This document shows positions 295-58,069 of a stretch of 64,000 nucleotides of DNA, in pieces. Numbering within the stretch: position 1 is the first letter of the stretch; every line of letters starts with the position of its first letter. Location of the stretch: contig JBAZFG010000004.1 of assembly GCA_041653515.1 (NCBI GenBank), positions 6,568 to 70,567 of the forward strand, given 5' to 3'. Position numbers and translations under genes: made by a program. The stretch is from Candidatus Nanoarchaeia archaeon (GTDB taxonomy: Archaea; Nanobdellota; Nanobdellia; WJKC01). A model generated the notes under the pieces. The model worked only from the letters and a program-made list of their open reading frames with translations. It had not been told where the DNA came from and searched no databases.

Positions 295-400
295 CTAAGG
301 GATAAGTTTTTGTTAAACAAAAGGGCACAGCCCCTCTTGACACCTCATGATTTTAAAGAAATAAGTGACTAAAACTAAGAGATAAGTTTTTATTAAAATA
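295..400 (+). promoter_or_regulatory. Upstream region of the surface-protein operon with two direct repeats of CTAAGrGATAAGTTTTTrTTAAA and a TATA-like box
   Basis: ctaagggataagtttttgttaaa at ~295-317 and ctaagagataagtttttattaaa at ~375-397. AT-rich TTTTTATTAAAATAA ends ~20 nt upstream of ATG 418. Confidence 0.3.
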
Positions 401-1883: not shown

Positions 1884-3899
1884 ATGGCGGAAATTGATGA
1901 CAGGATTGCTGCTCTTGCTAAAATGTTTAATAACACTACTGATGAAAATGAAAAAGCAGGCATTCAAAAGCAAATTGAGACTCTAAAATTATTGAGGAAT
2001 AAACAATCACAGGAGAGCACTGAAAAAGAGAAAACCTCTAAAGAAAAATACGAAGAAGAATCACAGGAGAGCACTGAAAAAGAGAAAACCTCTAAAGAAA
2101 AATACGAAGAAGAATATTATAAAAAGAAACTTGAAACTGAAAGTGCTGCTCAAAAAGCACAAAGTTCCTCTAAGACATTATTCAAACAGGGCTTGTCTTC
2201 TGGTTGGTTATTATTATTTATCGTTATGGCTGTTATTGGCTTCTTTTTAGTAATATTTAGCACATGGCTGGTTGGATTGCCATTAATCATTGCTGCAGGC
2301 GTGATAGCTTACAATAGAGGTAACTTAATGATACCAAGATTAACAGCAATACTAATCGCAATGTCATTCAAGTGGATGCCAATCATACCCCAATATGATT
2401 TAATCAGCGTTTTTGGCGTGACAATCGGTTTCATGGCAATAGTATTATTAATGCCTGAAGCCAAAGAGGGTAATAGTAAAAGCGGAGGGGTCTTTAAAGC
2501 AGGACCTGCTTTGTGGTGGGGTATTCTTGGTGTTATCATAACAGTTGGTTGGTCTATATTCATTTTTGCTGGAGTAACAAGCGGCACTACTATTGCGGCT
2601 GTCGCTGCTATTACTGGCGCAATGGTTGCGGGCAGTATTATCTGGAAGCAACCAATTAGTTCTGGTTGGAAAGGAATCTTAACACTAGCTTGTTTCTCGC
2701 CATTAATATTCCTCGGAGTTCAATACTTATTCATTGCAGGCGGCACAGCTCTTGGCGGCATCTTTGATGAAGTACAGCACTTACTAGGCCAAGGCATTGG
2801 TAGCACAGGCACATCACTTGACTGGTTATTAAACCCAACGCTGGCAGTGCAAGCTCAACTAAAACCACCAAGCACTGCAGCAACAACTACTAGTGGCACA
2901 GTCTCAAGCGTTAAATTAACTGTTACAGGGGATACCCTGCCAAGCACTGGTTGTTATGATTCCAGCCCATTCCAAATAATTGGTCGCATCAAGAATACAG
3001 GCACAGAGCATATCAGCTCGCTTGATGTTATAATGGAGCCTGACTGGTCTGGCGCGTCATTAACAAGTCAGTGCCGACAGATTAATTTGCCAACTGATTG
3101 CTCAACAACTATCACTTCAATCCCAACCGGTGTCACCTCAACCGTTGATTGCACAATTGAAAGCGTGCCGTCAAGTGATATTATAGGCGCGACAGCTACT
3201 CACACTTGTTATGTTGATATCACTGCAACAACAGGTTATCATAGCACTGCCCGACTGCCAATCCAATTCATTGAGTATGAGTATGGTCGCAGTAAGTTTG
3301 AGCAACACCAATTAACTCAACGAATCACGCCAAGCACGACTGGACCCGGCCCAGTTGAATTAAGCCTTGGTGGTTTTGAGCAACCAGTGCTTAATTATGT
3401 TAGCACAGGAAACGCGTCACCGCAGAAACTAACAATGATAACTACTATTAGTAATGACGGTACAGGTGATGTTAATAATTATGTTAGCGCTTACTTGTAC
3501 ATTCCTAATGTATTATTAGATGAAGGTCAATGCTCAGGCGCAGGCAATGGTTGGACTTGTATTAGTGAATTAAATTGTGATTCATTAAGCGATGAAGCTA
3601 AGACTAATTGCTTGAATTTCCTTACTTACAAGAATAATGGGTTAATCGCGGGTTATACTCAATTTGATTATGATTACGCTGACGAGTTATTAAATAATGA
3701 TTTCTCAATCTGCTTTTACAACAATGAGATTAATATTGATAATATTGAGACTAGCAAGTGCGTGTTAAAAGTTGGTGATGTAATGGATGGTGATAGTACT
3801 GCACTTAGGAAAACAATGCTAATAAGAGGCGATGTTCTTTACTCTTACAAAGTGACTGGTGAAGCCAGCTTCCAAGTCAAGGATTGTGATGTATCATGA
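1884..3899 (+). CDS. Polytopic membrane protein with N-terminal coiled/repeat region and C-terminal Thr/Ser/Cys-rich extracellular domain (CARDB-like NTGT motif)
   Basis: 671 aa. Tandem 18-aa repeat SQESTEKEKTSKEKYEEE x2. About 6-8 hydrophobic helices between aa 105-290. Downstream region contains IGRIKNTGTEHISSLDV, typical of DUF11/CARDB beta-sandwich domains. Stop overlaps the next start (ATGA). Confidence 0.6.
   Translation: MAEIDDRIAALAKMFNNTTDENEKAGIQKQIETLKLLRNKQSQESTEKEKTSKEKYEEESQESTEKEKTSKEKYEEEYYKKKLETESAAQKAQSSSKTLFKQGLSSGWLLLFIVMAVIGFFLVIFSTWLVGLPLIIAAGVIAYNRGNLMIPRLTAILIAMSFKWMPIIPQYDLISVFGVTIGFMAIVLLMPEAKEGNSKSGGVFKAGPALWWGILGVIITVGWSIFIFAGVTSGTTIAAVAAITGAMVAGSIIWKQPISSGWKGILTLACFSPLIFLGVQYLFIAGGTALGGIFDEVQHLLGQGIGSTGTSLDWLLNPTLAVQAQLKPPSTAATTTSGTVSSVKLTVTGDTLPSTGCYDSSPFQIIGRIKNTGTEHISSLDVIMEPDWSGASLTSQCRQINLPTDCSTTITSIPTGVTSTVDCTIESVPSSDIIGATATHTCYVDITATTGYHSTARLPIQFIEYEYGRSKFEQHQLTQRITPSTTGPGPVELSLGGFEQPVLNYVSTGNASPQKLTMITTISNDGTGDVNNYVSAYLYIPNVLLDEGQCSGAGNGWTCISELNCDSLSDEAKTNCLNFLTYKNNGLIAGYTQFDYDYADELLNNDFSICFYNNEINIDNIETSKCVLKVGDVMDGDSTALRKTMLIRGDVLYSYKVTGEASFQVKDCDVS
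2007..2114 (+). repeat. Perfect 54-bp tandem duplication (2 copies) inside the CDS, encoding an 18-aa repeat
   Basis: tcacaggagagcactgaaaaagagaaaacctctaaagaaaaatacgaagaagaa at 2007-2060 and again at 2061-2114. Confidence 0.9.
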
Positions 3900-6926: not shown

Positions 6927-6947
6927 ACTCTTTTTATATGAAAAGAA

Positions 6948-7020
6948 ACTTTGGTTTCCCAATAAACGCTCTTTTCAAAAAAAAGGAAGAGGTGTAGAGA
7001 GGGGAAAACTTTGGTTTCCC
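6948..7020. repeat. Two direct copies of GAAAACTTTGGTTTCCC, each holding the small hairpin GAAAC-TTTG-GTTTC, between convergent genes. Possible bidirectional terminator pair.
   Basis: gaaactttggtttccc at 6948-6963 and gaaaactttggtttcccc at 7002-7020. Confidence 0.4.
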
Positions 7021-7023
7021 CTT

Positions 7024-7785
7024 CTAACCAATGTAACATTGTCTAATAGTATTATTATCTGCTAAGCCTGCCAGTCTTGATTCTTCTTTTAATTCTTCTT
7101 CATAACTCTTGATTTCATCATCTAATTCATCAAAGTCAAGCTTGAAGCCGAGGTATTTGGTGATTACGGTTAATATCTTCTTGGCTTCTTTAACCCCAAC
7201 GTGTTGTGATTGATTAATGGTTTCAGCTAGTAATGAGAAAGCATTAATTTCTTCGAGGCTAGCAATACCTAATAATAAGCCTGCCGCGCCAAGCACTATC
7301 TTAACTGTCTCGTTGCCATCAAAAATAACGTCCAAGCCATTAAGTGATTCCTTAATTGATTCATTATTAATTATCACATGAACCCTTGGCTCGTCTGGTG
7401 GTTCAGGTAATCCAATACCACCAAGCGTGACTAATTCACTAACCCCTAATTCCTTGGCCAACTCAATGATTTTCTTACAAAGAGCATAACTCTCGCTGTC
7501 ACCTGTTGGTTGAATATCTCCTGAGACTAATAATAAATCTCTACCATTGATTTTTGTGTGATAAAACTCAATGCTAAACATCTTAATAGTTGAGTCATCA
7601 TTAATCGTCACTGAATTAGGGAATACATCTGAGAATAACTCAATTATTTTTCGCGCCTTAAGTTTATTAACTAAGTAATCAATGCTGGCGCGCGCAACGT
7701 TACCAATGCCTGGCAAGCCTTCAATCATTATGGGGTTAATCATCTTAACGGTCTCAAATTTTTTAACTACGAATTCAGTCACCAC
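7024..7785 (-). CDS. PAC2-family protein (proteasome assembly chaperone-like, COG1938)
   Basis: N-terminal MIEGLPGIGNVARASIDYLV matches the G-x-PG-x-G signature of archaeal PAC2 proteins. Sits where COG1938 usually follows aIF2alpha in archaea. Confidence 0.55.
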   Translation of the reverse strand: MVTEFVVKKFETVKMINPIMIEGLPGIGNVARASIDYLVNKLKARKIIELFSDVFPNSVTINDDSTIKMFSIEFYHTKINGRDLLLVSGDIQPTGDSESYALCKKIIELAKELGVSELVTLGGIGLPEPPDEPRVHVIINNESIKESLNGLDVIFDGNETVKIVLGAAGLLLGIASLEEINAFSLLAETINQSQHVGVKEAKKILTVITKYLGFKLDFDELDDEIKSYEEELKEESRLAGLADNNTIRQCYIG

Positions 7786-15831: not shown

Positions 15832-15920
15832 TCAAAGAAAATGATTAGAAAAGAATATAAACTAATTAACAATAGTTAATTAATTATGATTTTACCACAA
15901 GAACTAGAAGTCTTCCCGAA

Positions 15921-15971
15921 CCGCAGGGGGGACACCCCCCTTCAGTTCATGGCATCTCCTGATTCCCCCCG
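15921..15971 (+). repeat. 51-bp GC-rich palindromic core element, copy 1 (CCGCAGGGGGGACACCCCCCTTCAGTTCATGGCATCTCCTGATTCCCCCCG)
   Basis: Identical to copies at 16022-16072 and 57921-57971. GGGGGG-ACA-CCCCCC hairpin plus a second CCCCCC tract. Confidence 0.9.
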
Positions 15972-16021
15972 AAAACGAGGCGACCAATGATTCTTCCACA
16001 AGAACTAGAAGTCTTCCCGAA

Positions 16022-16072
16022 CCGCAGGGGGGACACCCCCCTTCAGTTCATGGCATCTCCTGATTCCCCCCG
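16022..16072 (+). repeat. 51-bp GC-rich palindromic core element, copy 2
   Basis: Identical to 15921-15971. Confidence 0.9.
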
Positions 16073-16087
16073 AAAACGAGGCGACCA

Positions 16088-16441
16088 ATGATTCTTCCAC
16101 AAGAACTAGAAGTCTTCTATGTCATCCCCGCAATCAGGCGGGAACTAGCCCTATCCCTTAGCAAAAAAGGCTTTAAACAAAAAAAGATTGCCCAGATTTT
16201 CGGGGTCACTGAAGCCTGCATCAGCAATTACTTCAAATCAAAAAGAGCTAACGAAGTCAAATTCAACGTTAAAATAATCAAATTAATCAATGATTGTGCT
16301 GAAAAACTATCAAAAGGACAAACTTGTTTCATTAACGTTGTCCAAAAAGTTTGCAAAGAATTCAAGAATAGCGAGTGTTTATGCGCTCTTCACGAAAAAC
16401 TTGACGAGCACGTCTGTAAATGCAGGGGGTGCTTAGAATGA
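16088..16441 (+). CDS. HTH transcriptional regulator with C-terminal Cys cluster, upstream of iscSU (possible Fe-S responsive regulator)
   Basis: HTH-like KKIAQIFGVTEACISNYF. C-terminal CLCALHEKLDEHVCKCRGC. Stop overlaps the iscS ATG (ATGA). GAGG RBS 8 nt upstream of the ATG. Confidence 0.45.
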   Translation: MILPQELEVFYVIPAIRRELALSLSKKGFKQKKIAQIFGVTEACISNYFKSKRANEVKFNVKIIKLINDCAEKLSKGQTCFINVVQKVCKEFKNSECLCALHEKLDEHVCKCRGCLE

Positions 16442-19661: not shown

Positions 19662-20264
19662 ATGAAAATATTAGCGACTGCGGACATACACGGGGACAAA
19701 AAACTAGTTGACCGCTTAATTAAGAATAGTAAGGACGCTGACGTAATTGTTGTGGCCGGTGACCTGACTTGGGCTGAAAATGATTTGCGAGGGATTATTG
19801 GGCCACTAAAAAAGCAAGGCAAACCAATTATTATGATACCAGGCAATCACGAAACACTAGCTTCAGTTGATTTCTTAGAGAACTTGTATAAGCCGGGTGT
19901 TTACAACTTGCACGCGCGCGGCATTAAAATCGGTGACACTTGTTTTGTTGCTTGCGGTTCAGGTAACATTGGTTTATTCCAACTAAGCGATGATGAAGTC
20001 ACTGACGCTTTAGAGAAAGCAATTAAAGAAGTAAAGGGTTGCACTAAAACAGTGCTAGTCACTCACACGCCGCCATACCAAACATTACTGGATAACCTTG
20101 GCTGGACTAATGCAGGGAGCAAAGCGGTCAGAAAATTCATTGAGAAGCACAAACCAGACTTATGCTTGTGCGGCCACATCCACGAGACCGCAGGTTTAAT
20201 GGAGAAAATAGGCAAGACACTAGTGGTAAACGTTGGGTTTAGCGATAAGATAATTGAGATATGA
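19662..20264 (+). CDS. Calcineurin-like metallophosphoesterase
   Basis: ADIHGD, VVAGDLT, GNHE and HTPP motifs. Confidence 0.7.
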   Translation: MKILATADIHGDKKLVDRLIKNSKDADVIVVAGDLTWAENDLRGIIGPLKKQGKPIIMIPGNHETLASVDFLENLYKPGVYNLHARGIKIGDTCFVACGSGNIGLFQLSDDEVTDALEKAIKEVKGCTKTVLVTHTPPYQTLLDNLGWTNAGSKAVRKFIEKHKPDLCLCGHIHETAGLMEKIGKTLVVNVGFSDKIIEI

Positions 20265-20364
20265 TTAACGCCCCTAACCTCAAAAGGGGGAGGTTAGGTC
20301 CAAGGAGGGAGAACGCCTCCTGGACGTAAACGTTGGTTTTAGTGATAAAATAATTGAGATTTAA
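20265..20364 (+). repeat. 61-bp GC-rich double-hairpin insert followed by a ghost copy of the last 12 codons plus stop of the metallophosphoesterase
   Basis: Insert 20265-20325 carries CCCCTAACCTC-AAAA-GGGGGAGGTTAGG and CCAAGGAGG-gagaacg-CCTCCTGG hairpins. Ghost GTAAACGTTGGTTTTAGTGATAAAATAATTGAGATTTAA (20326-20364) versus live GTAAACGTTGGGTTTAGCGATAAGATAATTGAGATATGA. Both encode VNVGFSDKIIEI*. Confidence 0.8.
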
Positions 20365-20404
20365 CAAACAATATTTAAGTCAGAGAATATTTTAATTATA
20401 ATTA

Positions 20405-28043: not shown

Positions 28044-28157
28044 GCTTCGGTAGCTCAGAGGTAGTAGCGCTGCTCCGGTACGCTCACTTCGTTTATGTAA
28101 TAACGAGAGTTGAGCCTAGAAAGGCAGAGGTCGTGGGTCCAATTCCCATCCGAAGCT
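28044..28157 (+). tRNA. tRNA with 41-nt canonical 37/38 intron. Anticodon probably GGT (Thr).
   Basis: Acceptor GCTTCGG/CCGAAGC. D-arm GCTC..TAGC. Anticodon stem CTGCT/GGCAG (28070-74 / 28123-27). Loop CCGGTA|A, exon1 ends at 28080, intron 28081-28121. T-arm GTGGG-TCCAATT-CCCAT. Discriminator T28157. C33 is unusual, so anticodon identity is tentative. Confidence 0.65.
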
Positions 28158-31254: not shown

Positions 31255-32685
31255 ATGCGAAAAACAATCCTATTAATAGCTTTTATTCTAATGGCTGGGG
31301 TAACAAGCGCGGTTAGTTATGAAGTCACTGGGGTTAAAACAAGAGTATACCCTGAGGAGAGTCTTATTTACAGGATAAACATAATTAACAATGACTCGGT
31401 TAGCAAAGAGGTTTACATTAACAAGTATATGGTGGAGAACACTTTTGGTATGGCTAGCAGTGTTAGGCCGTCAATTAACCTTGTTTTATCACCTAATAGT
31501 TCAACAATCATTAATGTCACAATTCCAGTTAGTAATAGTGTTACTAAAGGGACTTACAGCACGCCATTATTATTCTCTTACGGCAATACCACCACGGACA
31601 GGGTTTATCTTGAATCAGTTATTCTTAGTAAGGTATTAGAACCAATTGAATTGCAAAACATTACGGTCATTAACCCTGAGAGCATTATTCCAGTTCATGA
31701 GTTTAACACAACAGTCACGCTCTTATGCAACATTGAGTCAGTTTACCCGTTAGTTAAAATAACTGTTAGTGATGATAATGGAATTATTTATGAGTCTAGC
31801 AGTGTTCAGGAATTAAAAGAAGGTATTAATGTGTTCAGGCGCAGCGTTAAATTACCTGACCGAACAATGCCTGGCACTTACACTTTATTAGTTGAAGCTA
31901 GTGTTTCGGGCAGGGTTATTACTCAGGGGGTGGGTGATTTAGTAATTAATCCCTACACTTACATTAATTATTCAGCTGGGGTTTATGAGGACTTGTTTGG
32001 TAAACGAGTTAATCGCACTGCGGATAACCTTGGTACTGAAATAATTAACACTAGTGTTAATTACACTACTTCGTTATTAGAGCCATTATTAATTAATCGA
32101 ATATTATTATTAATTAAGAAAGATGGTAATATTATTAGTTCAACTACACCTGTTATTAGTGATTACTTAATTAATGAATTAGTCACGCTTGAATCAGGTG
32201 AGTCAGCTGAATTAATCATTGAGTTTGGTTATGGCTTATTAATTGCAATCCCATTTGTTATTATCTTAGTGATTATTGGTTGGTTCTTCGTGACTAAGCG
32301 AGTAATTGTTAAGAAAGAAATAATTGAATGCCATAAGGATGGTAATGAATTAACCGTTAAGGTTGGAGTTAGTGTTAAGAACGTTTCACTTAGCAGTATT
32401 AATAATGTTAAAATTATTGAGGATTTGCCTGTTTACGCTAAGAAAGCAGGCGCTTTTGGCAGTATTAAGGGTGATATTGACCGCAAGAAAGGTATTATTA
32501 CTTTCCTGCCAGGCCGGCTTGACCCTAAAGAAGAAGTATTATTATCTTATAAATTCAAGACTGATATTGAGTTAGTTGGCAGGGTCTCGTTGCCGCCAGC
32601 CACAGTTAAGTTCAGGGTTGATGATAAAGTAATGATTGTTAAGAGTAATACTACTGGCATTGAATTAATTAAAGGCGGAGAGTAA
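31255..32685 (+). CDS. Secreted surface protein with C-terminal transmembrane anchor, hypothetical
   Basis: Signal peptide MRKTILLIAFILMAGVTSA. Beta-rich body with sequons. Hydrophobic segment LLIAIPFVIILVIIGWFFV near aa 320. Confidence 0.5.
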   Translation: MRKTILLIAFILMAGVTSAVSYEVTGVKTRVYPEESLIYRINIINNDSVSKEVYINKYMVENTFGMASSVRPSINLVLSPNSSTIINVTIPVSNSVTKGTYSTPLLFSYGNTTTDRVYLESVILSKVLEPIELQNITVINPESIIPVHEFNTTVTLLCNIESVYPLVKITVSDDNGIIYESSSVQELKEGINVFRRSVKLPDRTMPGTYTLLVEASVSGRVITQGVGDLVINPYTYINYSAGVYEDLFGKRVNRTADNLGTEIINTSVNYTTSLLEPLLINRILLLIKKDGNIISSTTPVISDYLINELVTLESGESAELIIEFGYGLLIAIPFVIILVIIGWFFVTKRVIVKKEIIECHKDGNELTVKVGVSVKNVSLSSINNVKIIEDLPVYAKKAGAFGSIKGDIDRKKGIITFLPGRLDPKEEVLLSYKFKTDIELVGRVSLPPATVKFRVDDKVMIVKSNTTGIELIKGGE

Positions 32686-32838
32686 AAACAATCTATTCTT
32701 TCATCTTTACATCCAATCTTAGCTCAATAAACCCTTTTCTCGCTTCGCTCCAAAAGTATTTCATCCCAAAATTAATGCGCTTAGTAATCTTTTTAAAACA
32801 ATCTATTCTTTCATCTTTGTATCCCGTCTTAGCTCAAT
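32685..32838 (+). repeat. 44-bp direct repeat x2 (110 bp apart) duplicating the tRNA-Tyr upstream region and the first ~16 nt of the tRNA
   Basis: aaaacaatctattctttcatctttacatccaatcttagctcaat (32685-32728) versus aaaacaatctattctttcatctttgtatcccgtcttagctcaat (32795-32838). Confidence 0.8.
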
Positions 32839-32958
32839 GGTAGAGCGCATGGCTGTAGACCAATACTGGATTCAAAATATTCTCGTGTTGGGGAAAAGCG
32901 TGCATTGAGCAGGCATTCAGATACCATGAGGTTCCCGGTTCAAATCCGGGAGACGGGA
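32823..32958 (+). tRNA. tRNA-Tyr (GTA) with 64-nt intron at 37/38
   Basis: C1:G72 acceptor CCCGTCT/AGACGGG, which is the archaeal Tyr identity. D-arm GCTC-AATGGTA-GAGC. Anticodon stem CATGG/CCATG. Anticodon GTA at 32855-57. Intron 32859-32922. T-arm CCCGG-TTCAAAT-CCGGG. Discriminator A32958. No encoded CCA. Confidence 0.8.
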
Positions 32959-33050
32959 CATTCTTATTCCTCCTGGTTCAAACTCTCGAGTGAAACGAGA
33001 GAGTGCCTGAGCGAGCGATAGCGAGTGCAGAGCATCCGGGAGACGGGACA
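32944..33050 (+). repeat. tRNA-Tyr 3'-end duplication flanking a structured insert (element A)
   Basis: 17-bp direct repeat ATCCGGGAGACGGGACA at 32944-32960 and 33034-33050. Insert 32961-33033 = CATTCTTATTCCT + CCTGGTTCAAAC (T-arm mimic) + hairpin CTCTCG-AGTGAAA-CGAGAG + GTGCCTGAGCGAGCGATAGCGAGTGCAGAGCA. Confidence 0.8.
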
Positions 33051-33059
33051 CTTTTTTTT

Positions 33060-35973: not shown

Positions 35974-36070
35974 GTCAGGGAGATGGGACATTCTTATTTC
36001 TCCTGGTTCAAACCCACGAACGAAGTGAAGTGGGTGCCTGAACGAAGTGCAATGTGTCCAGTAGATAGGA
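35974..36070 (+). repeat. Degenerate third member (element B) of the tRNA-downstream structured element family. No tRNA present.
   Basis: GTCAGGGAGATGGGACA (a tRNA 3'-end-like remnant) + CATTCTTATTTCTCCTGGTTCAAAC + hairpin CCCAC-GAACGAAGTGAA-GTGGG + GTGCCTGAACGAAG. Covaries with element A. Confidence 0.7.
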
Positions 36071-36126
36071 TAATCTTTTTTTGAATAATCAGTTTTATAA
36101 GCCACATCACTACTCTAAATTTATTT

Positions 36127-39701: not shown

Positions 39702-39744
39702 ATAGTAATCCTTAAAAATAGGTCTTTGGTTTCATTTTACAATT

Positions 39745-39817
39745 GCTTCGGTAGTCTAGTGGTCTAGGATCTCGGACTGTCGATCCGGGGACCCGGGTTC
39801 AAATCCCGGCCGGAGCG
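39745..39817 (+). tRNA. tRNA-Asp (GTC), no intron
   Basis: Acceptor GCTTCGG/CCGGAGC. D-arm GTCT-AGTGGTCTA-GGAT. Anticodon stem TCGGA/TCCGG with loop CTGTCGA. T-arm CCGGG-TTCAAAT-CCCGG. Discriminator G. 73 nt. Confidence 0.85.
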
Positions 39818-39880
39818 GTTAAAACAAGCGACGGCAGGGGCCTGGAATTTATTCCAGTGCACCGGCCGAAGCGATTATCT

Positions 39881-40446: not shown

Positions 40447-40586
40447 GGGCCCGTAACTCAGTCTGGTTAGAGTACTTGGCTTTTACGTCGCTACGCTCCT
40501 CCGTCCTTACGGACGGACGCTCGCTTGCTAAAACAAGCGGTGACGAGGATACCAAGGAGTCGCGGGTTCGAATCCCGTCGGGCTCA
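40447..40586 (+). tRNA. tRNA-Lys (TTT) with 65-nt GC-rich intron at 37/38
   Basis: Acceptor GGGCCCG/CGGGCTC (G2:U71). D-arm ACTC..GAGT. Anticodon stem CTTGG/CCAAG. Loop CTTTTA|A. Intron 40486-40550. T-arm GCGGG-TTCGAAT-CCCGT. Discriminator A40586. Confidence 0.75.
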
Positions 40587-40747
40587 CATCCTCAAGGAGG
40601 GGGACTCCCCCTCCTTTAGAGATAATTCTCCCCCGATAAGTTGCGCCAAAGGCGCTAACCAATAAGTGGGTTCAAACCAACGGAGCTCTGCGAAGTTAGT
40701 GCCTGAACGAGCGAATAACAAAGTTCAGAGCATCCCGTCGGGCTCAC
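40572..40747 (+). repeat. tRNA-Lys 3'-end duplication flanking a 144-bp structured insert (element C)
   Basis: 16-bp direct repeat ATCCCGTCGGGCTCAC at 40572-40587 and 40732-40747. Insert includes the perfect 23-nt palindrome AAGGAGGGGGA-C-TCCCCCTCCTT (40594-40616), the T-arm mimic GTGGGTTCAAACC, and the conserved arm GTGCCTGAACGAGCGA...CAGAGCA. Confidence 0.8.
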
Positions 40748-50937: not shown

Positions 50938-51621
50938 ATGGTTAAGAAATCTTTATTGCTGAAAGCAAAGGAAATTGAGGATAAGAAGATTGTTAAGAAA
51001 GGCGAGGAAGTCTTGATTGATTTTAGTGATATTAAATTGTTTGATAAGTGGGATACTAATAATATTGAGGTTAAGGATGAGGGTTTGAAGCGTTATATTA
51101 ATCTTAAACCAGTAATCGTGCCTAAGACTCATGGTCGTAACCAAAAGACTCGTTTCTGGAAGAGTAAACAACATATTGTTGAGCGATTAATGAATCATGT
51201 GCCTGTTAGTGGTCATAAGGGCAAGAAGCATTATTGGAGTAGTGCTGAGCAGATTGGTGAGGGTCATACTATTTTTATGGTTATGATTAAGGCTTTAACT
51301 GAGATTGAGCGTAAGACTAAAATAAACCCTGTTGAAGTGATTGTTCGGGCGATTGAGAAGTCTTCACCGCGCGAGGAAGTCACAACAGTTCAGTATGGTG
51401 GTATTAAGCATCCTAAAGCAGTTGATTGCGCGCCTCAGCGAAGGGTTGATTTAGCGCTTCGTTGGATGAGTCAGGGCGCTTTCCAAGCGAGCAATAAGGG
51501 TAAACGTCGTATTTGGAGCACTTTATCTGATGAGATTATTGCTGCTTACAATAATGACCGTAAGAGTTTAGCTATTAGTAAGAAATTTGAGACTGAACGA
51601 CAAGCTGCTGCCAGCAGGTAA
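50938..51621 (+). CDS. rps7: Ribosomal protein S7 (uS7)
   Basis: 227-aa uS7/eS5-type sequence, in the canonical S12-S7 order. Confidence 0.9.
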   Translation: MVKKSLLLKAKEIEDKKIVKKGEEVLIDFSDIKLFDKWDTNNIEVKDEGLKRYINLKPVIVPKTHGRNQKTRFWKSKQHIVERLMNHVPVSGHKGKKHYWSSAEQIGEGHTIFMVMIKALTEIERKTKINPVEVIVRAIEKSSPREEVTTVQYGGIKHPKAVDCAPQRRVDLALRWMSQGAFQASNKGKRRIWSTLSDEIIAAYNNDRKSLAISKKFETERQAAASR

Positions 51622-51714
51622 AATTGATTTTTTCTAATAATTAATATTATTCTTTGGGGTGAAGCCCTTTCTTTTTAAGAAAGGGTTTCTTTGAGACTGA
51701 ACGACAAGCTGCTG
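51589..51714 (+). repeat. rps7 3'-end duplication: 22-nt direct repeat flanking a hairpin-bearing insert
   Basis: GAGACTGAACGACAAGCTGCTG at 51589-51610 (the live end, ..GCCAGCAGGTAA) and at 51693-51714 (ghost, ..GTATCAAGATAA = ETERQAAVSR*). Between them lies the hairpin GAAGCCCTTTCTT-TTTAAG-AAAGGGTTTCTT (51661-51692). Confidence 0.8.
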
Positions 51715-51736
51715 TATCAAGATAAAAAAAGATTAA

Positions 51737-52654
51737 TTATATTTTTTTCTCAATATTCTTAATTAAACTTAATAGACCATTTCTATCATTCTTTATTAGT
51801 ATTGATACTTGGTTATTGTTTACTCGACAAACATTGAATTCTTTTAGGCAATTATAGAATTCGACTGTAAGTGATTCATCAAGATTTTCAGGCGGGGTTA
51901 GCGTGTAATCAGTGTTTTTATTAATGAATTGTTCTTCAACGTAGTTTATTACTGATTCAATGGCAGTTTTTTTAATATAACAATCAAGTTCTTTGGATGA
52001 TTTTCTAATTTCTTTCTTTTTTAACAAAGCGCTTAGTTCTTTTAAGTCTGTGTTAATGCCATTAATTTGTTGCTCAAGTTTTTTGATAGTAGTATCTTTA
52101 TGTAAGAAGCGTTGTTGATAAGCAGATAATTCTTCCTTAACAACTATTAAGTTAGATTCTCTTTGCTCAATAGCCTCTTTTAATGAATTAATTAATTTAG
52201 GGTAATTATCCTCTAATAATAACATGTAATCATTAAGCACCCTAAGAGTGAGAGATGGATTAGGCTTGTTAAAGTAATAATTATTATTTTTGCGTTTAAT
52301 TATTATATTTTCAGTTAATTGATTAATGGCTTCCTCAATGAGTGGTTTTTCACATTTAACAAAGTCAGGGTTAATTTCTTTTAAGTGATTAATTAATGAT
52401 TTAAACTCAGTCAATCCTTTATTGGATTCATTAAAGTCATAAACTGCTTGTTCCATTGACTTGCAATCCTCAAATAAGTAAGCATTATTTTTTAATAACT
52501 CTTTTTTATCATTAATACATTTAATCTGGTTATCAATAGTCATATAACCTTTTTTAGCTAATAGAGCATTAAGCGCAAAACTACCCATACAATTAATCTC
52601 TGTTGATAATAATTCAAGCTCTAATGTCCGATAAGCCTTATTTTCACGATACAT
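51737..52654 (-). CDS. Hypothetical coiled-coil protein inserted on the opposite strand between rps7 and EF-2
   Basis: 305-aa K/E/N-rich helical ORF interrupting the conserved S12-S7-EF2 array. Confidence 0.4.
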   Translation of the reverse strand: MYRENKAYRTLELELLSTEINCMGSFALNALLAKKGYMTIDNQIKCINDKKELLKNNAYLFEDCKSMEQAVYDFNESNKGLTEFKSLINHLKEINPDFVKCEKPLIEEAINQLTENIIIKRKNNNYYFNKPNPSLTLRVLNDYMLLLEDNYPKLINSLKEAIEQRESNLIVVKEELSAYQQRFLHKDTTIKKLEQQINGINTDLKELSALLKKKEIRKSSKELDCYIKKTAIESVINYVEEQFINKNTDYTLTPPENLDESLTVEFYNCLKEFNVCRVNNNQVSILIKNDRNGLLSLIKNIEKKI

Positions 52655-52739: not shown

Positions 52740-54914
52740 ATGGCTAAGTTTGATGATAAAATAGCTTTTCTTCATAAGAAACAAGCTCAGATTAGGAATA
52801 TGGGTATTATTGCTCATATTGACCATGGTAAGTCAACTTTAAGTGACTCATTATTGGCTGGTGCTGGTATGATGCGGATGGAGCAAGCTGGTACTCGCCG
52901 GATGACTGATACAACTGATGAAGAGCAACAAAGAGGTATTACTATTCAGAACACTGGTGTTAGCATGATTCATAATGTTAATGATATTGATTATTTAATT
53001 AACTTAATTGACACGCCAGGCCACGTTGATTTTGGCGGTGAGGTCACAAGGGCTTTGCGAGCAGTTGATGGCGCGTTAGTGGTTGTTTGCGCAGTTGAGG
53101 GCGCGATGCCTCAAACTGAGACTGTATTAAAGCAAGCGCTTAAGGAGCGAGTTAAACCAGTTTTATTCATTAACAAAGTTGACCGATTATTAAAAGAATT
53201 AAAACTCACACCTGAGCAAATGCAGGAGCGTTTCCTTAGGATTATTGCTAAGGTTAATCAAATTATTTATGATAACGCGCCTGCTGACTTGAAGAATAAA
53301 TGGCAGATTAATGTTAATGATGGCACAGTTGCTTTTGGCACAGCAGTTGACCGTTGGGGCCTGAGCGTGCCTGTAATGAAGCAGAAAGGAATGACTTTCA
53401 AGGATGTATTAGATGCTTATTATAAGGGTGGTAAAGAAGCAATTAATGAATTAGGTGATAAAGCACCGGTTCACTCAGTTATCCTTGATATGGTAACCAA
53501 GCACTTGCCTAACCCGATTGAGGCTCAGAAGATGAGGATACCAATTTTATGGCATGGGGACCTTAATAGTGTTGTTGGTAAATCATTAATGAACTGTGAC
53601 CCTGAAGGCCCATTAGTATTCATTGTTACTAAAATATTTAATGACCCACAAGCAGGTGAGTTAGCTTTTGGTAGAGTCTTTAGCGGCACTTTAAGGCAGG
53701 GTAATGAAGTTTACATGGTTAACGCTAAAACTGACTCGCGGTTCCAGCAAGTATTCATCATGAAGTTAGATAAGCGTGAGATTGTTGATAGTGTGCCTGC
53801 AGGTAATATTGGCACAGTTATTGGTTTGAAAGGGGTTGGTAGTGGTGAAACTGTTTGTCAGGATAAAGAGATGATTGGTTTTGAAAAAATTAAACATATG
53901 TTTGACCCAGTAGTTACTAAGAGTATTGAACCTAAGGACCCTCAAAAACTTGTTAAGTTAATCAAATTATTAAGGAATTTACAGCAAGAAGACCCAACTA
54001 TGAGAACCACTATTAATGAAGAGACAGGTGAGTGTCTTATCTCTGGTTTAGGTGAGCTTCACTTAGAGATTATTGAGCATAAGATTGAGCGCGATAATGA
54101 TATTCCAATTGTTACTAGCCCGCCAATTGTTGTTTATCGTGAGAGTATTGGTAAAAAGAGTAATGTTGAGTTTGGTAAGAGTCCTAACAAGCATAATCAT
54201 TTCTTCTTCCTGATTGAGCCTATGCCAACTAATATTTATGACGCATTAGCTAAAGGTGAGTTAAATGATATGGAAATTAAGAAGAAACATAATGATGTTA
54301 TTGATAAATTAATTGATATTGGCGTTGACCGAGAGGAAGCTAAGCGTATTAGGAGTATTTACAAGAAGAATATGTTGATTGACGGCACTAAGGGTATTGT
54401 TCAGATTGGTGAGGTCATTGGGTTAGTTATTGATGGTTTCAAACAAGTAATTAATGCAGGCCCATTAGCTAAGGAGCCTTGTGAGGGCATTAAGGTTACT
54501 TTCACTGATTGTAAGTTGCACGAGGACGCGATTCATCGAGGTCCGGCTCAGGTTTACCCAGCTGTTAGGGAAGGTATTCGTTTTTGTTTTAATAGCGCTG
54601 AAGCACAATTATTAGAGCCAGTACAAATAAGACAGATAGAAGCGCCTAATGAATTCATGGGCTCTTTATCTAAGATTGTTCAGTCAAGGCGCGGTAAGTT
54701 GATGAGCATGGACCAAGAAAATAATAATGTTATTATTAAAGCTGAATTACCTGTTTCTGAATCATTTGGTTTCACGAGCACTCTTCGAAGCGCAACTGAA
54801 GGCCGTGGAGTCTGGTTCTTAATTGACAGTAAGTATCAGCCAGTACCTAAGTCATTGCAGGATGAAGTTGTTAAGAAGATTAGGCAACGCAAAGGCATGA
54901 AGACTGAAGAGTAA
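52740..54914 (+). CDS. fusA: Elongation factor aEF-2
   Basis: AHIDHGKST, DTPGHVDF, and the diphthamide-loop region HRGPAQ. Confidence 0.9.
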   Translation: MAKFDDKIAFLHKKQAQIRNMGIIAHIDHGKSTLSDSLLAGAGMMRMEQAGTRRMTDTTDEEQQRGITIQNTGVSMIHNVNDIDYLINLIDTPGHVDFGGEVTRALRAVDGALVVVCAVEGAMPQTETVLKQALKERVKPVLFINKVDRLLKELKLTPEQMQERFLRIIAKVNQIIYDNAPADLKNKWQINVNDGTVAFGTAVDRWGLSVPVMKQKGMTFKDVLDAYYKGGKEAINELGDKAPVHSVILDMVTKHLPNPIEAQKMRIPILWHGDLNSVVGKSLMNCDPEGPLVFIVTKIFNDPQAGELAFGRVFSGTLRQGNEVYMVNAKTDSRFQQVFIMKLDKREIVDSVPAGNIGTVIGLKGVGSGETVCQDKEMIGFEKIKHMFDPVVTKSIEPKDPQKLVKLIKLLRNLQQEDPTMRTTINEETGECLISGLGELHLEIIEHKIERDNDIPIVTSPPIVVYRESIGKKSNVEFGKSPNKHNHFFFLIEPMPTNIYDALAKGELNDMEIKKKHNDVIDKLIDIGVDREEAKRIRSIYKKNMLIDGTKGIVQIGEVIGLVIDGFKQVINAGPLAKEPCEGIKVTFTDCKLHEDAIHRGPAQVYPAVREGIRFCFNSAEAQLLEPVQIRQIEAPNEFMGSLSKIVQSRRGKLMSMDQENNNVIIKAELPVSESFGFTSTLRSATEGRGVWFLIDSKYQPVPKSLQDEVVKKIRQRKGMKTEE

Positions 54915-56331: not shown

Positions 56332-56784
56332 ATGGTGAACCTTAATTTCTCTAATGAAGTTTTTTTCTGCCTGCCAGTTAGTGAAAATGAGTTTGATGAC
56401 TTAATGATTGGCCTAGACTCGCTTGAAAACCGATTAAATAATACTAAGCGGGTTTTAAGTAATAATTATTTTAATGATTGGTTATTCTTTAACTCAATTA
56501 ATATTTCGTTAAGTTTATTAGAGATTTATTGTCATTTAAGTAATAAAACTGTTAATTATTTATCACGGTTTAATGATTTAACTGATGAGCATCATAAGAA
56601 GATTTTTGGTTTCACTAAAGATGAACCTGAAGTGCGTTCAAAAAGGTATTCTTTATTTCAGAGTTATAACATACAATTAATCCCTAATAATCAGGAATAT
56701 GGTGATTCATTAAAAAAGCTTAAGATTCCTGATTATGCTAAACCTAATGCTATGTATCATATTGCTTTAAGCCAAAACCTTTAA
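56332..56784 (+). CDS. Hypothetical protein inserted between EF-1alpha and S10
   Basis: 150-aa ORF. Confidence 0.35.
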   Translation: MVNLNFSNEVFFCLPVSENEFDDLMIGLDSLENRLNNTKRVLSNNYFNDWLFFNSINISLSLLEIYCHLSNKTVNYLSRFNDLTDEHHKKIFGFTKDEPEVRSKRYSLFQSYNIQLIPNNQEYGDSLKKLKIPDYAKPNAMYHIALSQNL

Positions 56785-56810: not shown

Positions 56811-57122
56811 ATGAGTTCGAAAGCCCGAATTAAATTAAGTAGCACTGAACCTGAAGCACTTAATAGTATTTGCGAGCAAATTAAGGGCATTACTAGTCGG
56901 ACTGGGGTTGACATTAAAGGACCAGTGCCATTGCCGACTAAGAAGATTCGAATGGCTACTAGGCGTGCTATTAGTGGTGAGGGCAGGGAAACTTATGAGA
57001 GTTGGGAGTTAAGGATTCACAAGCGATTAATTGATATCCCAATGGATGAGCGCGCGTTAAGGCTGATAATGAGGATTGCCATCCCTAAGAGCGTTAACAT
57101 GGAAATGGAAATTACTGAGTAA
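56811..57122 (+). CDS. rps10: Ribosomal protein S10 (uS10)
   Basis: ARIKLSSTEPEALNSICEQIKGITSRTGVDIKGPVPLPTKKIRMATRRA. Confidence 0.85.
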   Translation: MSSKARIKLSSTEPEALNSICEQIKGITSRTGVDIKGPVPLPTKKIRMATRRAISGEGRETYESWELRIHKRLIDIPMDERALRLIMRIAIPKSVNMEMEITE

Positions 57123-57250
57123 AATATTTAATATTTAGTTCTTTTGGTCAAGGTTTTCTTGCTAAGAAAAGCTTGTTGGAAATGGAAATTACTGAGTAAA
57201 ATATTTAGTTCTTTTGGTCAAGGTTTTCTTGCTAAGAAAAGCTTGTTGGA
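57101..57250 (+). repeat. Tandem duplication (~73-77 bp x2) of the rps10 3' end (last 6 codons + stop) and its 3'UTR hairpin
   Basis: ggaaatggaaattactgagtaaaatattta[atattta]gttcttttggtcaaggttttcttgctaagaaaagcttgttgga at 57101-57180, and again without the 7-bp extra at 57178-57250. Contains the stem GGTTTTCTT-GCT-AAGAAAAGC. Confidence 0.85.
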
Positions 57251-57262
57251 ATAAAATAATTC

Positions 57263-57898
57263 TTAACGGTGCTTATACCTGCCTCTTGATTCAACAGTTA
57301 GTAATCGTTTAATTACTTCCCTGCCAATAGGGTAATGTTTCTCGTAAGCTTTTTTGAATAACTTCCATGCTTTATGGTAAACATTATAGTGACGGCTCAT
57401 CAAAGCTTGTTTTAGAACATGCAAGTCAACTGCTCTTGACTCAACTTTATCACTAACCTCGCTTAAACCAAAATCAATAATGAATAATTCACCCTCTTTT
57501 AGCAGCATATTACTTGTTGTTAAGTCGCCGTGAATAATATTATTAACATGCAATAAAGCCACTAAACGACCAACTTCTTTCATAACATTAAGATTATTAT
57601 CAAGCACATCACGCAGGACTGGCGCGTCAATGAAATCCATCGTGATTGAGTAATCAGTCACGCCGCGAACTCTTGGCACATTAATTAGTTTACCAGCCCG
57701 CTCCAGTAACCGCGCCTCGGCCTTAGTTCGCTGGCGACGCAACATTAAATCAAGCTCTTTAATACGATAAGACTTTTTCACCCGCGCCTTAATTAAAGTT
57801 GAACCATCACGCCATAACTTACTCTCAGCCCCTTGCGCAATAATCTGGCGCTTATTGCTCTTCGCTTCGCTCAGCCGCTCTTTATTATTTAACGCCAC
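57263..57898 (-). CDS. bud32: Bud32/PRPK-like protein kinase (KEOPS)
   Basis: RQIIAQGAESKLW, IIHGDLTTSNMLL, IIDFGLS. GTG start at 57898 with GAGGTGA SD 7 nt upstream. Adjacent to kae1. Confidence 0.75.
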   Translation of the reverse strand: MALNNKERLSEAKSNKRQIIAQGAESKLWRDGSTLIKARVKKSYRIKELDLMLRRQRTKAEARLLERAGKLINVPRVRGVTDYSITMDFIDAPVLRDVLDNNLNVMKEVGRLVALLHVNNIIHGDLTTSNMLLKEGELFIIDFGLSEVSDKVESRAVDLHVLKQALMSRHYNVYHKAWKLFKKAYEKHYPIGREVIKRLLTVESRGRYKHR

Positions 57899-58069
57899 TT
57901 AACTATCACCTCATCCCAAACCGCAGGGGGGACACCCCCCTTCAGTTCATGGCATCTCCTGATTCCCCCCGCAAAAACTAACGCCACTTAACTATCACCT
58001 CATCCAAACTTTTCCGCTCCGCGCAAAACCTTGACCAAAAAACTAACGCCACTTAACTATCACCTCATC
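57891..58069. repeat. Three direct copies of a 25-32-bp segment (kae1 3' end + bud32 RBS/start) separated by two different short inserts
   Basis: AACGCCACTTAACTATCACCTCATC at 57891-57915, 57980-58004 and 58045-58069. Spacer 1 contains the 51-bp GC-rich core. Spacer 2 = CAAACTTTTCCGCTCCGCGCAAAACCTTGACCAAAAAACT. Confidence 0.9.
57921..57971 (+). repeat. 51-bp GC-rich palindromic core element, copy 3
   Basis: Identical to 15921-15971 and in the same orientation. Confidence 0.9.

Follow-up and report, generated by a model that had tools for sequence, protein, structure and literature searches.

A duplicated S7 gene end around a hairpin in a Woesearchaeote genome, probably one half of a long target duplication

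Introduction

In fungal mitochondria, as in the hybrid atp6 gene of Allomyces and with GC clusters and double-hairpin elements, a live gene end is followed by a mobile insert and a displaced, coding-like ghost of that end. GC-rich hairpin elements have spread there in an AT-rich, compact genome; the driver is the open reading frame (ORF) of a homing endonuclease, with co-conversion of the flanks. Diversity-generating retroelements (DGRs), which are known in DPANN archaea, have template and variable repeats at the 3' end of a gene and a hairpin downstream. Here we examine a gene end to be compared with these systems. It lies in 64,000 nucleotides of DNA from a Candidatus Nanoarchaeia archaeon (GenBank assembly GCA_041653515.1, contig JBAZFG010000004.1, positions 6,568 to 70,567 of the forward strand), which we call the window and within which positions are counted. 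The gene of ribosomal protein S7 is followed there by a hairpin and a second copy of its own 3' end, termed the ghost.

Insertion with long target duplication was described in bacteria for kilobase-scale restriction-modification gene units, where each event is unique; the repeats measure tens of bp, sometimes overlap the 3' end of a gene and leave this gene intact (Furuta, Abe & Kobayashi 2010, PMC2853133). Among insertion sequences (IS), direct repeats of 8-514 bp are formed by IS1634/IS1549 and of 19-26 bp by IS1630 (PMC2266710, PMC2853133), and the IS1634 family is found preferentially among Euryarchaeota (PMC2266710). REP/BIME and MITE-type repeats are short, GC-rich, extragenic stem-loops, which occur in many copies, typically just downstream of genes (PMC3184786, PMC2817692).

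Comparison of the locus with its relatives and with similar loci led us to the view that the S7 ghost is probably the downstream half of a long target duplication around a hairpin module copied in past the S7 stop codon. The locus belongs to what appears to be an undescribed class of hairpin cassettes, specific to this lineage, which sit at gene termini of Woesearchaeota and are flanked by long target duplications; no paper that joins Woesearchaeota with intergenic hairpin repeats was found in the literature.

Results

The source contig is that of a Woesearchaeote (Nanoarchaeia). Its nearest relatives in GTDB and in metagenomes are metagenome-assembled genomes (MAGs) of Woesearchaeota/Nanoarchaeia with a best S7 identity of 80%. 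The window is archaeal with a G+C content of 36% and has the gene order rpoH-rpoB-rpoA'-rpoA''-L30e-NusA-S12-S7-[305-aa ORF, minus strand]-EF2-EF1a-[150-aa ORF]-S10. The S7 gene (50938 to 51621, plus strand) is live and intact. It encodes 227 amino acids, matching the 227-228 of its relatives, and hits Pfam PF00177 (Ribosomal_S7) with E = 7e-32.

The gene end, which reads TTTGAGACTGAACGACAAGCTGCTGCCAGCAGGTAA, is present twice on the plus strand. The live copy (51586 to 51623) consists of the last 33 coding nucleotides, the stop codon TAA and AA, while the ghost (51690 to 51727, stop at 51723-51725) starts 104 nt further on, both being 84% identical over 38 nt. The original prediction, made by a model from the letters alone, had the last 22 nt repeated. 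The repeat is real, yet the duplicated unit is the last 36 nt including the stop codon, with the first 25 nt exact (51586-51610 and 51690-51714). This 25-mer has exactly two occurrences in the window at up to three mismatches, whereas none was expected from 100 dinucleotide shuffles. The last 11 nt, on the other hand, differ at six positions, CCAGCAGGTAA in the live copy versus TATCAAGATAA in the ghost. As had been predicted, the ghost retains a coding reading with two synonymous changes and one Ala to Val change: the live end FETERQAAASR* becomes FETERQAAVSR* by GCC>GTA (Ala>Val), AGC>TCA (Ser, synonymous, with all three bases different) and AGG>AGA (synonymous).

The 66 nt between the copies are non-coding. 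A 32-nt AT-rich spacer (51624 to 51655) leads from the S7 stop to the hairpin region; it resembles the sequence behind the ghost no better than shuffles do. Then follows a mini-hairpin, GGGGTGAAGCCC(T) then TTCTTTTT (51656 to 51668), which was terminator-like on the S7 strand in a scan for such structures and has a T-run after it. Overlapping with it is the main hairpin (51661 to 51689), which directly adjoins the ghost. Its stem had been called a perfect one of 12 bp, which is nearly correct: the arms (51661-51673 and 51677-51689, loop TTT) are 13 nt long and 92% complementary with 12 Watson-Crick pairs and one G-T pair. As RNA the hairpin forms 13 pairs, and a stretch of 77 nt folds at -18.9 kcal/mol (z = -2.5). 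It may serve as a terminator or as an RNA-stabilising stem between convergent genes. At the gathering threshold only four tRNAs passed an Rfam search of the whole window. At E up to 10, the best matches at the S7 locus and in the relative L046 had 13-23 bits compared with thresholds of 33-99 and were considered noise; the single CRISPR-type match had 14 bits against a threshold of 39.

Only the gene end is repeated in the window, while spacer and hairpin are single. A plain tandem duplication reaching into the AT-rich flanks was dropped, because the similarity of the flanks was equalled in 297 of 500 shuffles. Read-through or frameshifting into the ghost was ruled out as well, since the offset of 104 nt breaks the reading frame and none of the open frames crosses the insert.

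Because MAGs represent mixed populations and the two tails look like two alleles, an assembler might have concatenated two strain variants of the S7 end. This is hardly credible. The independently assembled Logan contig L014 (SRR18595300, 10,176 nt) is 100% identical across the S7 region and the exact repeat of 25 nt is shorter than the k-mer of that assembler, which renders an artefact unlikely. In addition, the hairpin is part of neither presumed allele, and the same architecture was found in over 10 contigs that stem from different projects and were built with different assemblers.

The S7 site was compared among contigs of relatives (L numbers). It is filled in the window, L015, L016, L017/18, L043 and L046 and empty in L042, L044, L045, L047 and L048; at the empty sites the flanking repeat is single-copy. 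On a neighbour-joining tree of S7 the presence is patchy, with L043 filled versus its sister L044 empty, and L015 and L016 filled versus L042 empty. Counted from the stop codon, the duplication has its boundary at -33 in the window, L015, L016 and L043 and at -23 in L017/18, and extends from -10 to +40 in L046. In an alignment, the mini-hairpin of the window is homologous by position to the GGGGYGRARCCCCTTC hairpin next to the S7 ghost in L015, L016 and L043, and the hairpin core GGGGYGRARCCCYTTC stands directly before the ghost in the window, L015 and L016. A second copy of the window's S7 insert was not found.

Relatives display the pattern at S10, rpoH/rpoB and rpoA'/A'' as well as at S7. 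The rpoA'/A'' junction has the usual overlapping stop and start, uninterrupted, in eight relatives. Only L015 is interrupted there, by a 43-nt insert with a 16-nt duplication (AGGTGAGTTAAARTGA), the first copy of which ends rpoA' while the second starts rpoA''. The Kae1 stop overlaps the start of the RIO/Bud32 kinase gene (ATGGCGTTAA) in L044 (~18354), L047 (~18847) and L048 (~18054), i.e. the site is empty, whereas in the window both genes are held apart by two different hairpin cassettes. L044 has an empty S10 site, too. In the sister outgroups L047 (1764-1886) and L048 (1765-1883) the 3' end of rpoH is duplicated before rpoB, with unlike hairpin inserts and unlike boundaries (26 vs 34 nt). 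No such repeats were seen within the 10-20 kb sampled of L042, L044 and L045.

The inserts are a heterogeneous set of dispersed repeats in several Woesearchaeota lineages. Family 1 is a sequence of 53 nt (AACCGCAGGGGGGACACCCCCCTTCAGTTCATGGCATCTCCTGATTCCCCCCG) at 15919-15971, 16020-16072 and 57919-57971, i.e. between copies of different duplicated targets, the start of ORF 16088 and the Kae1 end, where it is inverted relative to the gene. A copy that is about 85% identical and retains both ends lies after a tRNA in L043. Family 2 is defined by TTTTGGTCAAGGTTTT...AAAAGYTTG, which the S10 insert and the second Kae1 insert of the window have in common; the outgroup L048 has a homolog of this insert at its own S10 gene end. 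The H family, GGGG(G)TKTNGARAGGGG...CCCCTTC, was searched with a sequence profile (nhmmer) and has members in L015, L043, L046, L047 and the window. It occupies S7 (L015, L043, L046), S10 (L015, L043, L047), the rpoA'/A'' junction (L015) and other sites. All significant profile matches are co-oriented with the S7 strand of their locus, and the hairpins at S7, S10 and rpoA'/A'' adjoin the downstream duplicate. Weak H-like matches in the window are at 6991-7024 and 323-344. A scan of viral contigs for an 18-mer of the H family gave five matches, all generic phage terminator hairpins in unrelated contexts and without flanking duplication.

These data bear on a purely local origin, in which the hairpin would be the native terminator in the 3' untranslated region (UTR) of S7 and replication slippage at microhomologies, furthered by the hairpin, would have duplicated gene end, UTR and hairpin in tandem, with later deletions in the second unit; no mobile element would be involved and the likeness of hairpins across loci would reflect convergent terminators. 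Full units bounded by microhomology do exist, two at S7 of L046 (CTTC) and two at S7 of L043 followed by TTGAGA, as well as at S10 of the window (TGGAA). S10 tandem arrays with identical units are present in the window, L015 and L043, which implies recent expansion, although copy numbers of longer arrays are unreliable in short-read assemblies. The terminator-like mini-hairpin with its T-run and the lack of a mobility gene among 38 ORFs of the window (see below) fit in as well. Yet, a local origin does not explain the hairpin at rpoA'/A'' of L015, 53 identical nucleotides at two unrelated loci of the window and their counterpart after the L043 tRNA, or the splitting of the Kae1/RIO overlap by two different inserts. 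The S7 sites of the window, L015 and L018 have no second UTR or hairpin after the ghost and their flanks beyond the repeat are dissimilar, and in three filled/empty comparisons the insert lacks a precursor at the site. Thus we consider a purely local origin unlikely.

The original prediction had the S12-S7-EF2 array interrupted by an opposite-strand ORF. This was confirmed: in L045 (S7 72% identical) and L047 (60%) the EF-2 gene begins 36-46 nt after S7, while in the window the ORF of 305 amino acids (ORF305; 51737 to 52654, minus strand), an orphan with a coiled-coil centre, converges on S7 and displaces EF-2 to 52740-54914 (plus strand). The junction has varied occupants, with 8.6 kb inserted in L046 and a DUF5680 gene in L048, and therefore appears to be an insertion hotspot.

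The prediction had also tied the duplication to the insertion of the whole gene and taken this for a recent event. Neither was supported by the comparison. ORF305 lies outside the repeat pair, its stop being 11 nt from that of the ghost. L042 and L044 possess a convergent ORF without hairpin or ghost and L046 has hairpin and ghost without a convergent ORF, hence gene and duplication are uncoupled. As to synteny, S7 and EF-2 are adjacent in L045 and L047 as a gene insertion would have it, yet a minus-strand ORF convergent on S7 is in the same position in the window, L015, L016, L017/18, L042, L043 and L044, so the arrangement is old. The ghost is 0-11 nt from the ORF in the window, L015 and L016 and 74 nt in L018, and in the empty lineages S7 itself is 1-6 nt from it. 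The closeness of both spacings implies that hairpin and duplication arose after the gene had come to abut S7; the module is younger than the gene.

ORF305 belongs to no Pfam family. A word-indexed search of 5.8e9 proteins returned only the protein itself. The homologs that the prediction had suggested looking for came down to one: an exhaustive search of 1.84e9 representatives identified P0122 (35% identity) on the 989-nt contig L049. It is likewise convergent, its stop facing an S7-type end at a distance of 24 nt. That end is probably a ghost, too, because it is preceded by TTCTTC and not by S7 codons. Homology of ORF305 with its positional counterparts in L015, L016, L018, L043 and L044 is suggestive, not established; it is indicated by weak chained similarities (pairwise 1e-15, 2e-11, 1e-3, 0.015 and 0.05; hhalign E = 2.8e-4 at a probability of 41%). 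We take ORF305 to be an old, fast-evolving resident of the S7-EF2 junction, which predates the duplication. A low-confidence AlphaFold model (pLDDT 52), too poor to warrant a comparison of folds, has a long central coiled coil at about residues 133-245, flanked by helix-plus-beta-hairpin units at 103-128 and 260-285; as a mere guess, these predicted units could be winged-helix-like.

Lineage-variable, mostly orphan ORFs were observed at every junction of the S7-EF2-EF1a-S10 cluster (window 56332-56784; L015 17090-17455 and 17568-17945; L044 13850-14617; L047 12908-13771; L043 17917-20012). The two junction ORFs of L015 look like paralogs with VFFK..PLS..Y..YI..KKINL.YI.E.KRVL in common.

In the relatives, too, S7 ghosts are close to the live end of their own genome. 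They differ at 2 of 36 positions in L015, 1 of 26 in L017/18 and 1 of 37 in L043, and the first 25 nt of the window have no difference. The ghosts of the window, L015 and L016 carry the synonymous states of their own lineage at positions 12, 15 and 18. The ghost of L016 (1723-1760) is decaying with 14 of 36 differences and an in-frame stop. Its changes include six C>T and no G>A, with seven C and eight G available, an asymmetry that suggests deamination of one strand. Considering the patchy presence on the tree and ghosts that track their own live copy, the S7 duplication is old but dynamic rather than stable. We infer that the copies evolve in concert through unequal recombination, a process that would also permit precise loss.

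The tail of the window's ghost does not follow this rule. Close relatives have either AGC or TCT for the Ser before the C-terminal Arg of S7 (L043 AGC, L044 TCT), which are three base changes apart, and both codon types segregate among the window, L015-L018 and L042-L049. The ghost tail has the TCN type found in the live S7 of L015/L016 and of L044/L045/L046. The proposal that the ghost might match the live end of relatives held for this codon type of the tail, while the first 25 nt track the window's own live copy. All six differences are confined to the last 11 nt and include AGC vs TCA, which points to tails of different ancestry. Probably a later recombination with a diverged allele has replaced one of the two.

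A stop codon difference was noted in seven live/ghost pairs (window 20262/20362 and 58043/57890; L015 10676/10846; L018 685/845; L043 10685/10784 and its S10 array; L048 S10). It was always from stop to stop (TAA, TGA or TAG) and in several pairs the sole difference.

Such allelic-looking differences raise the question of cassette homing, i.e. that the set of gene tail, hairpin and ghost spreads by homologous recombination with conserved gene ends as arms, the two copies being the donor and the recipient allele. The S7 tail with AGC vs TCA and both Ser codon types segregating nearby, five of five synonymous differences at the metallophosphoesterase gene of the window (see below) and seven of seven stop codon differences from stop to stop are as expected. 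So is the insert type at S10, which does not follow the S7 tree: the window and L048 have family 2 there, and L015, L043 and L047 have the H family. The targets, S7, S10, tRNAs, RNA polymerase (RNAP) subunits and Kae1, are highly conserved. Homing leaves, however, the first duplication at a new site unexplained, as at rpoA'/A'' of L015, and no mechanism is established for integrating a fragment both arms of which match one single-copy target. Differential loss from mixed arrays such as that at Kae1 with two insert types, combined with edges escaping gene conversion, could mimic the picture, and no donor-recipient pair was identified. Homing as the source of the S7 ghost is therefore improbable in our view.

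Co-variation of live end and ghost at synonymous sites in three lineages might also stem from selection for identity, if the ghost had a function, either as an antisense sequence in the 3' UTR of the convergent gene, matching the end of the S7 mRNA perfectly over 25 nt, or as part of a guide-like small RNA. The ghost adjoins the stop of the convergent ORF in the window, L015 and L016, and the hairpin families are conserved across lineages beyond neutral expectation. Yet, L042 and L044 have the same gene pair and no ghost, the L016 ghost decays, no Rfam family matches, and an antisense logic is inapplicable to the same architecture at tRNAs, 5' ends and co-oriented genes. A function and selection for identity are both very unlikely; the ghost is most likely a by-product without function.

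The original prediction had seen the signature at four other loci of the window. It does recur, but four is an undercount, as there are at least 10 further terminus or boundary duplications besides S7. They are marked by short-range direct repeats at a spacing of 65-202 nt and follow the order gene end, short AT-rich stretch, GC-rich hairpin and gene-end copy; at every window locus tabulated the insert folds into a GC-rich hairpin beside the distal copy. Target duplications vary between 16 and 53 bp, with some events below 30 bp and 36-38 bp at S7 of the window, and inserts measure 33-140 nt at all of more than 20 loci. Of the 57 local repeats counted in 522 kb (window and related loci), no more than 7 fall inside genes despite a coding density of about 90%.

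The 3' end of S10 forms an array X-Y-X-Y-X'' with a unit of 70/77 nt (57100 to 57262, plus strand). Between Kae1 and the RIO kinase gene (57884 to 58069, minus strand) the last 27-32 nt of Kae1 occur three times, and the RIO gene takes its start codon, GTG at 57898, from the distal copy. A 5' end is affected at 15886 to 16117 (plus strand), where ORF 16088 has its first 30 nt, counted from the ATG, in three copies around the 53-nt element. The repeated unit measures 101 nt, and the upstream copies each open an ORF of 33 codons that terminates in a TGA overlapping the next ATG. The metallophosphoesterase gene (19662 to 20264) has its 3' end copied from 20226 to 20326 (locus 20226 to 20369, plus strand) with a GC-rich double hairpin in between; the five differences of the ghost, including TGA>TAA, are all synonymous.

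Two intron-containing tRNAs are targets as well. In the one at 32823-32958 the 5' part and the 3' end each occur twice, with inserts between the copies (32685 to 33058, plus strand). Its 5' duplication takes in 24 nt upstream, and the two inserts carry the mutually complementary motifs CTCGCTTCGCTC and GAGCGAGCGATAGCGAG, so that leader and trailer could pair. The other one (40447-40586) has a copy of its 3' end 160 nt downstream (40570/40730; locus 40570 to 40747, plus strand), behind a hairpin-rich insert of 142 nt (z = -3.8). Intergenic duplications with H-family-like hairpins are found at 6946-6963/7006-7023 (locus 6946 to 7024, plus strand; GGTGTAGAGAGGGG...CCCCTTC) and, upstream of ORF 418, at 295-317/375-397 (locus 295 to 397, minus strand), the latter with the hairpin inverted (323-344).

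Duplicated 3' ends of genes and tRNAs, as at these two tRNAs, are the classical signature of integrases (PMC2853133), and the repeats at S7 might thus be attL/attR cores of an element that was mostly deleted later. No integrase was found in the ORFs scanned, however, and the small size of the inserts at all loci is at odds with it. One and the same insert has different flanking repeats at 15886-16117 and 57884-58069, which is not expected of a site-specific system, and 5' ends and overlapping gene junctions are targeted, too. Remnants of site-specific integration are accordingly a most improbable explanation, which is largely refuted.

Some further observations were made in the window. An orphan copy resembling a tRNA 3' end (GGGAGATGGGACA) and an insert similar to 32961-33033 are located at 35975-36080 with no adjacent tRNA gene. 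The intron-containing tRNAs at 28044-28157, 32823-32958 and 40447-40586 scored 40-59 bits with Rfam, while ARAGORN missed all three and reported tRNA-Asp at 39744-39818 only. A 54-nt tandem repeat (2002-2109, 98% identical) inside ORF 1884-3899 encodes a repeated segment of 18 amino acids.

Discussion

Among the described systems insertion with long target duplication comes closest. As there, the repeat is single-copy at the empty site, no transposase or integrase is inside the insert, and the duplication is variable and may exceed 30 bp (here 16-53 bp). In contrast to the unique, kilobase-scale bacterial events, non-coding, dispersed hairpins of 33-140 nt are involved here, with many events per genome, often as arrays, in DPANN archaea. 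The long-repeat IS elements resemble the loci in that their duplications far exceed the usual 2-14 bp and vary more. Yet, those elements are autonomous, 1.5-2 kb long and equipped with a DDE transposase and terminal inverted repeats, whereas here no such gene was present in the ORFs scanned, no inverted termini were clear, and several unrelated hairpin sequences have the architecture in common.

The hairpins are extragenic like REP/BIME and MITE-type repeats and might likewise act as terminators or stabilise mRNA. REPs, however, do not duplicate their target and have a conserved GTAG end and a RAYT transposase, whereas our inserts have long flanking duplications, no GTAG end and no RAYT in the ORFs scanned. 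MITEs have inverted termini and short, fixed duplications, and neither MITEs nor REPs duplicate 16-53 bp of a neighbouring gene. Dispersed copies with conserved ends, as in MITEs, were found for family 1 (three copies in the window and one in L043) and the H family. Terminal inverted repeats were reduced to a short G-run/C-run symmetry and internal hairpins, with no clear one in family 1 or the H-family inserts; instead of a short fixed duplication and a cognate transposase there were 16-53 bp and no transposase in 38 ORFs.

Unlike in the Allomyces-type case, no endonuclease was seen, and tiny inserts are found in an archaeal host. DGRs resemble the locus in having two direct copies of a gene 3' end, one of them coding, with a hairpin after the coding copy. 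They were ruled out, because the changes from ghost to live end include T>C, T>A and C>G and are not adenine-specific and no reverse transcriptase was present in the ORFs scanned; moreover, DGR repeats are about 100 nt or more compared with 16-53 nt, and the targets here are housekeeping genes and tRNAs. A CRISPR array or an ectopic spacer was ruled out as well, since each locus has its own repeat, a gene end of 16-53 nt, and the 'spacers' recur at other loci.

The anatomy of the loci, the dispersal of identical inserts, the filled and empty sites and the distribution across lineages show that small hairpin modules occur at gene boundaries together with long duplications of the target. A long target duplication around the S7 hairpin could have come about as follows, although we infer the route, and above all the mechanism of insertion. 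Small, non-autonomous, GC-rich hairpin elements would insert at gene boundaries with a target duplication of 16-53 bp. In packed genomes with abutting or overlapping genes only those insertions would survive that regenerate an intact gene end, and in overlapping pairs the ends of both genes, a survival filter that would make the pattern look like a 'terminus duplication'. Unequal recombination of the copies may then lead to tandem arrays (X-Y-X-Y-X), to a homogenised ghost or, by precise deletion, back to the empty site. Where the tails of live end and ghost differ by synonymous or allelic changes, one tail would probably have been replaced by recombination with a diverged allele.

The duplication itself may be produced by an enzyme that makes widely staggered cuts, for which IS1634/IS1549/IS1630 and insertion with long target duplication are precedents. 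Alternatively, template switching during replication might bring in the copy of a hairpin module located elsewhere and then resume upstream of the point of departure. Template switching fits the variable lengths, the microhomologies (CTTC, TTGAGA, TGGAA), the unrelated hairpins and the lack of a mobility gene in 38 ORFs. On the other hand, members of family 1 and of the H family begin and end at defined points, which speaks against template switching in its pure form.

Several results weigh against a long target duplication by an inserted element. The pattern of the window's S7 copies, 0 of 25 and then 6 of 11 differences, is not producible by simple duplication and decay and requires the further recombination step, which was probably the replacement of one tail. 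The H-family profile did not detect the S7 hairpin of the window even at E<50, as it is too degenerate, so that position and a 12-nt core are what assigns it to the family. At least six unrelated hairpin sequences occur with one architecture, which fits a structure-driven process better than one element with a dedicated enzyme. A Pfam scan of 38 ORFs of the window (about half) gave no transposase, integrase, reverse transcriptase or Cas1, and a duplication length that varies three-fold is unusual for transposases. The S7 sites of L046 and L043 and the S10 arrays can equally be read as a 3' UTR hairpin that was already present and became duplicated in tandem between microhomologies. We nevertheless favor the long target duplication as the probable source of the S7 ghost.

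The finding has practical consequences. Gene callers, tRNA finders and synteny inference can be led astray by ghost ends and duplicated starts, the reading of the S7 locus as a gene insertion being an example. The loci also offer many natural comparisons of filled and empty sites for insertion with long target duplication, the mechanism of which has been open since 2000. Furthermore, they point to a simple route by which overlapping, translationally coupled genes are separated, as with rpoA'/A'' in L015 and Kae1/RIO in the window.

A bolder idea, which we regard as doubtful, is that an undescribed class of tiny, enzyme-less hairpin cassettes of Woesearchaeota propagates into the ends of conserved genes (S7, S10, tRNAs, RNAP subunits, Kae1) and uses the gene-end duplications that it creates as homology arms, so that ordinary homologous recombination would serve for homing into the same gene of other lineages, precise excision and swapping. 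If such a class existed, ghost ends would be a fossil record of the donor or recipient allele and overlapping genes would become uncoupled by it.

For the DPANN archaea the modules represent a recurrent feature of Woesearchaeota in core genes, i.e. S7, S10, tRNAs, RNAP subunits and Kae1/Bud32, across lineages in which S7 is only 60% identical. Because ghost ends would keep older or foreign alleles of gene ends, they may provide a direct readout of recombination between uncultivated lineages.

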